Origin: Candidatus Versatilivorator sp.
GTDB lineage: Bacteria; Acidobacteriota; Terriglobia; Versatilivoradales; Versatilivoraceae
Length of the DNA stretch: 64,000 nt
Reading direction: 5' to 3'
Assembly: GCA_965207735.1 (NCBI GenBank)
Contig: OZ242296.1
Span: 3,008,001-3,072,000, forward strand
The translations under genes were made by a program, and so were the position numbers. The notes beneath the pieces are model-generated. The model was not told where the DNA came from and ran no database searches. It worked only from the letters and a program-made list of their open reading frames with translations. Below are positions 56,119 through 61,061 of the stretch, piece after piece; within the stretch, counting starts at the first letter, position 1; each line of letters begins with the position of its first letter.

Positions 56119-56730
56119 TCAACCCCCTTTGTCTCCCGTCCAGCGGAAGGCCGCTTCCGGGTTCAGCCCCAGGTGCTGCATCACCCGGTAGAGAAACTGG
56201 TCGATGATCCCCTCGAGGGTGGTATCTCCATGGTAAAAGGAGGGAGTGGCCGAAAACACCACCGCCCCCGCCAGGGTTGCCAGACGCATGTTCTCCAGGT
56301 GGATGAGATTGAAGGGGGTGTCCCGAACCACCAGCACCAGCTTGCGTCTCTCCTTGAGCATGACATCGGCGGCGCGCTGAATCAGGTTCCGGGAGATGCC
56401 GTGGGCAATGCTGCCCAGGGTTCCCATGCTGCAGGGAACGACCGCCATGGAGTCTACCGGGTGGGATCCGCTGGCGATCTTGGCCCCGATATCGTCGTTG
56501 CTGAGCACCTCGATCTTGCGGTGATGGCTCCCCGCCAGCTTCTCGCCCAGGTTACTAAGAGTGAGGGGTCTGAGATCCAGCTCATCGTTGAGGACGCGCA
56601 GGGCGGCTCCGGAAACAACCAGGTTGATGCGGGAAACAGCCGGCTCGGCGGCCAGCAGGTTCAGCAGGCGATAGGGATAAATGGCTCCGCTGGCTCCCGT
56701 GATGGCGAGGGTGATCTCCAAGTCTTTCAT
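56119..56730 (-). CDS. ubiX: Flavin prenyltransferase UbiX
   Basis: ITGASG, IASGS, PCSMGT, RAADV.LKERR. Confidence 0.93.
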
Positions 56731-57037
56731 ACCCGGTGGGTCGTGGAGTGCATGGGTCCTTCGGACCAGGGTTCCGAGACAGGATACTCGGACCTGCAAC
56801 TTCCCTTCAATGGTACATCAACTCCTGAATCGTCGGCCAGCCGCCGTTTGTCAGCGGGTCTCCGGGCACGAATCGCGGTTCGAAGGCTGCACCGGGAATC
56901 TGCTTGACTTCCGTCGATTGCTGATTTCTGATTGTCGATTGAAGAATTGCCACAAGGGACTTTGCTTCAAATCCAAAATTCGAGATCTGAAGACCTTGGC
57001 TCATCTGTCAATGTCGTTTCGACTCAAAGCGGGCTAG

Positions 57038-58149
57038 CCCGCATTTCTCACCAGGGGGCATGATCATGGCGCAGGATTTTTCCCTTCAGCGCGTGCTCGC
57101 GACCGAAGAGCGTAGCGGTCACTACGCGCGAGGGAGCATGTGCGCGCTGAAGGGAAAAAGACAAGCCAAGGCATGCCCAGCGCGGTCTGTTACCCGAAAG
57201 CCCTTCCCATGGAGCCAATCAAAGTACTGAAGATAAACTACTTGTCGTCATGGCACCAGCGGCCTGGGTAGAGTCGAGGACTGGCGCGTTGACTATAGGG
57301 TCCGGTGGCTATTCCGTCGCTTTCGCTTCGGGCCTCAGTCCGGCTCCCTTATCACGTTTCCAGTCCCCGCTCTCCGAACCGGACGTGCGGTTTTCCCGCA
57401 TCTCGGCTCTCCAGTGGGATCATGCGTCTCGCACACAGGTCCCCGCTCGCATCCGTGGACGACTCCTATGGGATTGGCACCCGTCCCCCACTCCATCCAC
57501 TTCCGCTCCCGGGTTGCCGCCAGGCCTGTTGATGCCCTGACGACGCCGTCCTCCTCCGACGACCCTTTCACTTTTGCATGTGATGCTTCCGGAGTCTCCG
57601 GCCCTTTTTTGGTCGGGGTTTCAGGCTTTCGCCACTCCCGGGACCCTTCCCCCTTCGGTCACCGCTCCTCACCTGAGGCCCCTTCCCTCCACCGGTATTA
57701 CCCGGCTTCTCCGGTACTACAGGCCTCTCCGCCACCCTGTCGGCCTAGACTGACTCTCGCGAGCTTCCGGTTCGGTGCGTGCCTCACCACCCACAGGGCT
57801 TCCCATGTTGCTGCCTTCTTCCCCTTCCATGCGTGCCAGCGCCACTACCCCGGCGGGTCCAAAGGGGTGCCCGCGTCGCTCGCTTCCCCCTCCGTCTTCG
57901 GCCTTCCCCATTTCTCAGGTGGGTCGGCCCCCGCATTGCCCGTTTCGAGGCCTGCTCGACGTTCACTCGCGTTCCGGCCCGCATGCTCGCTGAACCGCCT
58001 TAAGCGGCCCTTTGACACCAGAGGGCTTCAGACCATATCGTTACCTCCATGATCCGCCCTGGCTGCTACCAACCGGAGCGACAGTTGTTGGACGGGTTTC
58101 GCACCCGTTGGAAGAAGGCGCCTTTCCATGGCGCACTGAGAAATGCGGG
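57038..58149. mobile_element. 243-bp hairpin MITE (CTAG flanks) interrupted by a group II intron
   Basis: Left TIR CCCGCATTTCTCACCAGG; right TIR is a perfect 18-bp match once 57268-58136 is removed; CTAG on both sides. Confidence 0.85.
57268..58136 (-). ncRNA. ORF-less group II intron (IIB-like, probably bacterial class E/F)
   Basis: 5' GTGCGC, 3' CTCGACTCTAC; domain V GAGCCGAGATGCGGGAAAACCGCACGTCCGGTTC; domain III-like GTAGTACCGGAGAAGCCGGGTAA; no RT ORF. Confidence 0.93.
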
Positions 58150-58174
58150 CTAGCTATCTGGCCGGAGACTTCCC

Positions 58175-58921
58175 ATGAATGAAAAGACCCTCAGAAACCT
58201 GCTGGAGGAGATCAAGGGTGGCAAGCTCTCGGTCGACCAGGGGCTGGAGCAGTTGCGGCACCTGCCTTTCGAGGACCTGGGATTCGCCAAGATCGATCAC
58301 CACCGCTCCCTCCGCCAGGGGTTTGCCGAGGTGGTGTTCGGACAGGGCAAGACGGCGGACCAGATCGAGACCATCGTCAAGCGGATGCTTCCCCACAAGC
58401 ACAACATCCTGGTGACTCGCAGCCAGGAGGAGGTCTTCGGGCGAATCCGGTCCCTGTCTCCCAAGGCCCGCTTCCACCGGGAGTCCGGGACAATTGTGAT
58501 TCTGCAGGACGAGGAGATTCGAGGCAAGGGAACCATTCTGGTGGTTTCGGCGGGAACCGCCGACATCCCGGTGGCCCAGGAAGCGGTGGTGACCGCCCAG
58601 GCCATGGGAAATCGCGTGGAGACCCTCTACGACGTGGGGGTGGCCGGCATCCACCGCTTGCTGGACGCTCGCGAAAAGCTCCTGGCGGCTCGAGTGGTGA
58701 TCGTGGCTGCCGGCATGGAGGGAGCTCTCCCCAGCGTGGTCGGCGGACTGGTCTCGGCGCCGGTGGTGGCGGTGCCCACCAGCGTCGGATACGGCGCCAG
58801 CTTCGGCGGGGTGGCGGCCTTATTGGGAATGCTCAACAGTTGTGCCTCCAACGTGAGCGTGGTCAACATCGACAATGGGTATGGGGCGGGATTTGTGGCC
58901 AGTCTCATCAACCGTTTGTGA
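58175..58921 (+). CDS. larB: Nickel-pincer cofactor biosynthesis protein LarB
   Basis: [40 protein letters not shown]. Confidence 0.93.
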
Positions 58922-61046: not shown

Positions 61047-61061
61047 CCCGCATTTCTCACC
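61043..61061. repeat. Solo copy of MITE TIR / vacant intron target
   Basis: CTAGCCCGCATTTCTCACC identical to 57034-57052. Confidence 0.8.

Follow-up and report, generated by a model that had tools for sequence, protein, structure and literature searches.

A non-autonomous group II intron in the terminal repeats of IS1380-type elements, and the likely exchange of its targeting half with RT-bearing sister introns

Group II introns that home into the inverted repeats of insertion sequences, and ORF-less introns that ride on the RT of a sister intron, have each already been published. In Sinorhizobium meliloti GR4 the intron RmInt2 is reported, in the extracts of the papers cited here, to home into both inverted repeats of ISRm17 with a bias for the lagging-strand template (PMC4615759, PMC5894124). 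In Thermosynechococcus elongatus, TeI3 introns lacking an ORF are described as mobilised in trans by the IEP of a sister intron; the available portion of that account traces the ORF-less copies to one ORF deletion, has them outnumber the ORF-bearing ones, separates families by their EBS, places one family in the insertion sequence ISEL1, and ascribes retargeting to EBS mutation, each family forming a clade (PMC2882425). According to the excerpt of a review on which we rely, few bacterial introns are ORF-less, and related IEPs almost always occur alongside them (PMC4424553); the accessible part of another paper mentions a tract of gene conversion between subgroups of introns (PMC3522654). Our literature search, which took in a minority of the subscription papers, returned none that joins both habits or names IS1380 or MITE ends as targets, and no natural exchange of domain I. 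What the present locus adds to these two habits is evidence for an exchange of the targeting half of the intron.

The intron examined here resembles RmInt2, as portrayed in the extracts of PMC4615759, in being of an endonuclease-less IIB type, pairing through EBS1, EBS2 and EBS3, occupying both inverted repeats of an IS and favouring the lagging-strand template. The sequence CTAG stands at -16 to -13 in the selected target of RmInt2 and at -17 to -14 here (PMC4615759, same extracts), and we infer that in RmInt2 too it is the target-site duplication. As far as those extracts go, RmInt2 encodes its own class D RT, has seven copies and targets ISRm17, whereas the present intron is ORF-less, has 28 copies and targets ends of the IS1380 family, chiefly those of MITEs; LX3AX3PXLF[V/A]HW, which is quoted there as the C-terminal motif of class D, was missing by eye from the translations of the sister RTs described below (PMC4615759). 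The traits of the TeI3 ORF-less copies (one ORF deletion, numerical excess, families differing in EBS, residence in an IS) recur here, as do the lack of an IEP ORF, the IEP remnants and a close ORF-bearing intron in the same genome. The TeI IEPs carry an endonuclease domain (CL/IIB1) in the available portion of PMC2882425, whereas the one sister RT scanned here had no endonuclease match; and here, unlike TeI3, the 5' half groups with the RT sisters by target, while the ORF-less 3' halves all belong to one lineage.

The window analysed is the whole stretch of 64,000 nucleotides (G000:C1:3008001-3072000), part of a single 5.26-Mb contig of the genome that we call G000. The spacer between its divergent ubiX and larB genes is occupied by a MITE of 243 bp (without the intron), bounded at 57038-58149 by CTAG on either side, into which an intron running antisense to larB is inserted 13 bp inside the right end (Table 1). 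The earlier note, made from the letters alone, had reported an 869-nt ORF-less group II intron on the minus strand that splits the right TIR, and on both points it is borne out: the Rfam models group-II-D1D4-4 (58110-57967, 80.8 bits) and Intron_gpII (57411-57268, 41.2 bits) match domain I and domains V-VI, respectively, and removal of the intron restores the end that is present on empty copies. The outer 13 bp of the interrupted TIR still stand at the tip of the element, and perfect inverted arms of 18 nt lie at 57033-57050 and 58137-58154. The intron ends follow the pattern GUGYG...AY, domain V has its AGC triad, domain VI has a bulged A seven bases from the intron end, and the fold of these two domains has a z of -5.2. 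No RT-like ORF was found in the intron, the longest overlapping frame being an antisense one of 212 aa; the RT traces in domain IV were judged by eye against the RT sister introns, and a promoter scan of the intron gave one weak internal site. The intron presumably splices. The RNA runs consist of unstranded contigs from related organisms, with reads of several organisms at 88% likeness; a lariat or circle joint was not found in the contigs of four of the six runs (sponge and other metatranscriptomes), a spliced joint is in such data indistinguishable from empty DNA copies, and the summed depth over the intron, far above that over larB, comes from mixed organisms and unstranded contigs and is thus not usable as evidence.

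Table 1. Coordinates of the intron, its host element and neighbouring features in the window
Feature	Position	Strand	Remarks
ORF-less group II intron, IIB-type exon recognition	57268..58136	-	869 nt; GTGCG...CTCTAC
Domain IV, short, with decayed traces of RT start and end	57416..57676	-	limits approximate; common to ORF-less copies
Domain V	57376..57409	-	AGC triad 57408-57406
Domain VI, long, branched	57270..57373	-	bulged A at 57274
EBS1 UGAGAAA, ID3 loop	57911..57917	-	co-varies with IBS1; stem with compensatory changes
Likely EBS2 (C)GGGC	57938..57942	-	pairs GCCCG at -14..-10; between helices in the model
EBS3 G	57845	-	pairs first 3'-exon base C (57267)
Internal ID stem, first proposed EBS2	57976..57985	-	helix 1; two-sided changes in 3/9 pairs
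Internal ID stem, second proposed EBS2	57929..57934	-	helix 4; two-sided changes in 4/6 pairs
MITE body, left end unbroken (3' exon)	57038..57267	+	IS1380-type TIR beginning CCCGCATTTCTCACCAG; internal hairpin 57077-57159
Outer 13 bp of right TIR (5' exon)	58137..58149	-	IBS1 TTTCTCA at -7..-1; most of IBS2
Left target-site duplication CTAG	57034..57037		
Right target-site duplication CTAG	58150..58153		inner base is position -14 of IBS2
larB	58175..58921	+	NF033503 above cut-off; start codon 21 bp beyond right duplication
ubiX-family flavin prenyltransferase	56119..56799	-	TIGR00421 above cut-off; divergent from larB
tRNA gene, CAT anticodon	47420-47493	-	

The same spacer is without an element in a close relative (G002), and in a further genome (G005, L035:1880-3150) there are two different IS1380-type elements of small size, together with an oppositely oriented copy of the intron, which is an independent insertion into the same spacer. 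The internal hairpin of the MITE is long and nearly perfect (DNA fold z of -4.1) and abundant in metagenome contigs. To the left of the element, positions 57026-57037 resemble the last five bases of another TIR followed by CTAG and are missing in G002; judging from these letters they may possibly be the footprint of an earlier element. Ends standing back to back occur elsewhere in G000 (2586490, 3557909 and 4913409), and a lone empty 13-bp target with CTAG lies at 61047-61059 of the window, at the start of a neighbouring gene.

Exon recognition was compared over 47 non-redundant pairs of intron and site from 15 genomes, the top matches of one 61-genome search, less the loci in which the search pattern missed the hairpin or that had no 5' flank. 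The proposed EBS1 hairpin (loop TGAGAAA) exists and folds into the ID3 position. Counting G-U, EBS1 and IBS1 pair at 7/7 positions in 23 rows, 6/7 in 15 and 5/7 in nine, and 13 versions of EBS1 co-vary with IBS1; since the 47 rows are related, these represent only few independent EBS changes. The two sites that had been put forward for EBS2 fared differently: both are internal stems with compensatory changes and are structural. A proposed EBS2 ATGCGGGC is unchanged across the three target types of G000 and paired inside the intron, and was rejected. EBS2, which the part of PMC8643678 cited here places within an internal ID loop, is to go by its pairing most likely CGGGC (57942-57938): at least three Watson-Crick pairs form in 45/47 rows (offset free between 9 and 14), and its third base tracks the target (G-C in 31, A-T in 12 and T-A in two of the 47). 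EBS3 pairs in 37 of the 39 rows that have a 3' exon (G-C 30, G-T three, T-A three, A-T one; two mismatches). Among the genomic sites a preference for C at IBS3 is not significant (28/151 filled versus 0/11, p=0.21). Recognition through all three elements, with a short EBS2 of 3-5 bp at a free offset, is that of subgroup IIB; subgroup IIC does not fit the 7-bp EBS1 with an EBS2, nor the flanks of the copies, which beyond -17 are mostly unrelated. The domain I model of 39 pairs, drawn from the same 20 sequences on which it was scored, has 95.5% of its cells paired and two-sided changes at 16 pairs, and none of 500 shuffles scored as high. Folded as a single sequence, distal domain I is no better than shuffles (z of +0.3), so that the structure model rests on co-variation.

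BLAST against the genome returned 29 ORF-less matches of full length, one at 90.5% identity and 28 at 99.6% or more, 22 of them identical. All 28 near-identical copies are preceded by CCCG(C/T)ATTTCTCA and followed by CC; a shared flank in 28/28 copies is far beyond chance, and no copy lies in a flank unrelated to the TIR. Nineteen copies sit in MITE ends, six in the ends of a 1698-bp IS1380-family element and three in other ends, which among the 162 genomic 13-mer sites amounts to 19/75 MITE ends, 6/40 IS ends and 3/47 others. The earlier note's view of the MITE as the target is therefore right in that MITE ends are used and too narrow in that the target is the IS1380-type end generally, on the autonomous IS, on MITEs of several sizes and on lone ends. 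Its expectation of a transposase encoded elsewhere is satisfied by the 20 copies of the IS1380-family element, which has short TIRs, 4-bp YTAR duplications, a match to NF033539 (410.6 bits against a cut-off of 180), the Pfam domain DDE_Tnp_1_4 and a 455-aa transposase frame. The MITEs (35 full-length copies of about 243 bp) are short and non-coding, with IS-type TIRs and a duplication, and no match to the IS1380 element was found in their interior beyond the ends. From the common ends it may be surmised that an IS1380 transposase mobilises them; as divergence among the MITEs exceeds that among the IS copies, that transposase may be an older relative. Among 22 two-ended intron-bearing elements whose empty sites were rebuilt, one fell, by a rough test, within a coding-like frame that stays open to either side, and several adjoin another IS. 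One intron-bearing IS1380 copy (L005:1327-6489, G000:C1 at about 690 kb) splits a gene that we take, from its domain pattern, to be comEC-like.

Two further observations concern these ends. At one MITE end (L072, G000:C1:572744-572986) five bases of the intron start replace the usual five exon bases, a scar that looks like the loss of an intron through a 3-base microhomology. An IS1182-family element with 13 copies in G000:C1 (e.g. L070:694-2016) uses CTAG and adjoins an IS1380-type end in 11/13 cases; where it does so by its transposase-start end (n=9), seven ends bear an intron against 21/142 other sites (Fisher p=1e-4, in a test run after the pattern was seen). Transcription, accessibility or age may underlie this excess.

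A target of this kind invites the thought that the copies are retained because they disable IS1380 and MITE ends and so damp transposition to the benefit of the host, a role that has been proposed, in the extract cited, for RmInt1 and RmInt2 (PMC5894124). Six of the 20 IS copies do bear an intron at one end; the other 14 are intron-free at both ends, however, the transposase frame is open in all 20, and one intron appears to have been lost again with its 5-base scar. Because selfish homing explains the data without it, we regard a host benefit as unlikely.

An RT encoded elsewhere, which the earlier note had also called for, is present: G000 contains 15 RT-bearing sister introns, the only RT relatives found by tblastn. 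All have YADD, and 14 have an unbroken frame of 456-459 codons, one being frameshifted; the copy scanned reached TIGR04416 and matched Pfam RVT_1 and GIIM. Their best plasmid matches are 45-54% identical and themselves unclassified. The sisters address three targets. Thirteen, with the loop UGUCUUU, lie in a tandem-like repeat; one, with the loop UGUAAUU, in a palindromic repeat; and one, at 5.005 Mb, shares the EBS1 of the window intron and occupies an end belonging to a related IS1380 element. The last is the sought-for sister with a matching EBS1 and the closest candidate helper, outnumbered 28 to 1 by ORF-less copies at the shared target. The palindromic site type also holds the 90.5% ORF-less copy and an internally deleted intron of which some 117 bases are left, still in its target (G000:C1:4260992-4261108, L073). 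As 22 copies are identical and tblastn gave no further RT relative, the sister RTs would act in trans, and they are the likely helpers of the ORF-less intron.

The ancestry of the ORF-less introns differs between their two halves. The palindrome-target ORF-less intron of G000 is 98.5% identical to the same-target RT sister over nt 1-400 and 68.9% over the last 150 nt, whereas its identity to the window intron is 85.7% over nt 1-400, 92.3% in domain IV and 98.7% over the last 150 nt; the window intron in turn shares 92.5% of nt 1-400, and 67.3% of the 3' end, with its own same-target RT sister. The tree of the 3' end unites the eight ORF-less rows in a single clade (99/95); two RT rows (L052, L020) are badly cut in this tree, and the pairwise identities are independent of them. 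In the tree of nt 1-400 the ORF-less rows group by target with the RT rows, and forcing seven of them together costs 138 log units (p-AU 6.8e-7, for a test named after an earlier tree had been seen). The switch in informative sites falls near nt 398-411 in G000 and near 320-345 in G004, and it is less sharp in G008. This mosaic of sequences is most simply read as recombination between the halves, in one direction or the other; the ORF-less 3' half (DIII/DIV-DVI) is likely to be one lineage that exchanged its 5' targeting half (DI-DII) with RT sisters. The same introns might have arisen with no such exchange, either by a separate ORF deletion in each target lineage or by retargeting solely through EBS point mutation, which is the published route in the available portion of PMC2882425, and single-base EBS variants do exist among the relatives. 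Yet ORF-less introns with three different targets are 92% alike in domain IV and 98.7% in domains V-VI, against 67-69% to the RT sisters, and their agreement with the same-target sister over the first 400 nt extends to dozens of sites outside the EBS. With the AU test and the runs of sites on either side of the switch also arguing against it, we hold an origin without exchange of halves to be quite improbable.

As to the mode of spread, the sense strand of the intron is the lagging-strand template in 22/28 copies against 44/123 empty sites (Fisher p=4.5e-5; 22-23/28 by local skew), and in 15/17 copies of the RT sisters. These calls are approximate, ori and ter having been placed from skew on lopsided replichores (1.5 versus 3.8 Mb), and co-orientation with host transcription could produce a similar bias, both effects being combined in the counts. 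Together with the lack of an endonuclease domain in the scanned RT, the bias is that of introns primed at the replication fork. The cumulative GC skew of G000 also has a local reversal near 3.5-3.9 Mb, which suggests inversions between repeats or misassembly. Each MITE had been supposed to offer two landing sites. Both ends are indeed used, but unequally, the lagging-template end being preferred, and both were filled in none of the 22 listed two-ended intron-bearing elements of G000 and in one element of G011. The earlier note's further suppositions, that landing there is harmless and that insertion breaks the TIR, are best held as conjecture, given the outer 13 bp kept at the tip and, in the window, an antisense intron close before the start codon of larB. 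The host MITEs are about 4% divergent and differ by 7-10/243 bases on average, although their introns are identical. Intron-bearing copies show no clustering on the tree of the MITEs (13 changes against a shuffled mean of 13.1). The strand bias and the identity of introns within divergent MITEs point to independent retrohoming. A different history, in which IS and MITE copies that already bore an intron kept transposing with the outer 13 bp of the TIR sufficing, would make use of the intact tip and duplication and could draw on the identity of 19/20 transposases for movement among IS copies; it would also account for two identical MITEs with an intron that lie 186 kb from each other, where 0/190 empty-empty pairs are identical. 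Against it stand the copies at either end of the IS and of the MITE, in shorter MITEs and in lone ends, in addition to the MITE divergence, the unclustered status and a bias that fits homing, and we consider such passenger spread highly improbable and as the main route already unlikely. The identical pair is unpredicted by independent homing and leaves room for occasional co-transposition or gene conversion. That the high copy number is an assembly artefact, as 22 identical copies might suggest, can practically be dismissed, because the flanks differ, the duplications match at both ends of most elements, related genomes have the same pattern, and in run X1 (which may be the source sample of the assembly) contig depth is about 241 over the intron against 9.1-9.5 over the flanks, a roughly 26-fold excess that matches the copy number.

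The same ORF-less intron in the same TIR is found in three other genomes (G005, G009, G011), and ORF-less relatives with other targets in five (G004, G008, G047, G048, G055). Close RT sisters occur in all five genomes searched for them (G004, G005, G008, G009, G011); sisters with the same EBS occur in G005, and none among the two loci examined in G011. A G011 locus (L089) has two RT-bearing introns head to tail, an arrangement also reported for RmInt2 in a plasmid assay in the extracts of PMC4615759. A variant end, TAACCCATCTTTAACA, is the target of those RT sisters whose EBS1 reads UGUUAAU/A (L047, L053-L058, L066, L084-L086); in L047 this end stands directly before the start of an IS1380 transposase; on this comparison the EBS1 version appears to track a TIR variant. 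G004 also contains 18 copies of another RT family, amplified there and distant from the first (33% identity, frame of 526 codons; L091). The nearest named transposases, at 81-84% identity, belong to Candidatus Versatilivorator (Acidobacteriota). A metagenome scan for the TIR-intron junction gave at least 120 stretches (about 210 by estimate), with YTAR preceding 98 among the matches listed; of the 64 listed that extend 330 nt or more downstream, an RT match occurred in 36 (a few of them misplaced) and an ID3 loop starting UGAGA in 25. A search for the domain V pattern gave no match in the IS1380 loci or the metagenome loci. When 80 IS1380 relatives were searched for adjoining introns, RT matches were found in four loci, of which L095 and L136 have theirs at or beside the IS end; L131 has an Rfam domain I match beside the IS, outside its TIR, and in a Bradyrhizobium MAG an intron with a 46%-identical RT occupies the same position of an IS1380 end.

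The window intron is thus real and recently amplified, and combines two published strategies on an IS1380/MITE target. The reading that we prefer, and to which we assign a probability of about 0.85, is that of a non-autonomous IIB-type intron in IS1380-type TIRs that would find each end by base pairing of EBS1, EBS2 and EBS3 and enter it by retrohoming on the lagging-strand template, primed at the fork. The endonuclease-less RT of the sister introns would act in trans on its spliced RNA, the MITE would be moved by the IS1380 transposase, and exchange of the 5' half (DI-DII) with the RT sisters by recombination would change the target. A more general picture, for which we put the chances at about even, is that the ORF-less intron is a reprogrammable chassis, whose protein-less 3' half repeatedly acquires the targeting half of a resident RT sister and with it the target repeat (IS1380 ends, palindromic or tandem), so that it would parasitise an intron which is itself the parasite of a MITE derived from an IS, all within a broad clade of introns that follows IS1380 ends from phylum to phylum.

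For the study of intron targeting these genomes constitute a natural experiment, in which 13 versions of EBS1 have matching targets, EBS2 and EBS3 can be read, and empty sites lie beside filled ones. Whether a split TIR still functions would decide between introns as a brake on the spread of the IS and introns as mere riders. Half-swapping, if confirmed, would give introns another way, in addition to EBS mutation, of acquiring a new target specificity; it would mean that DI and DIII-DVI are interchangeable modules, which would be useful for targetron design.
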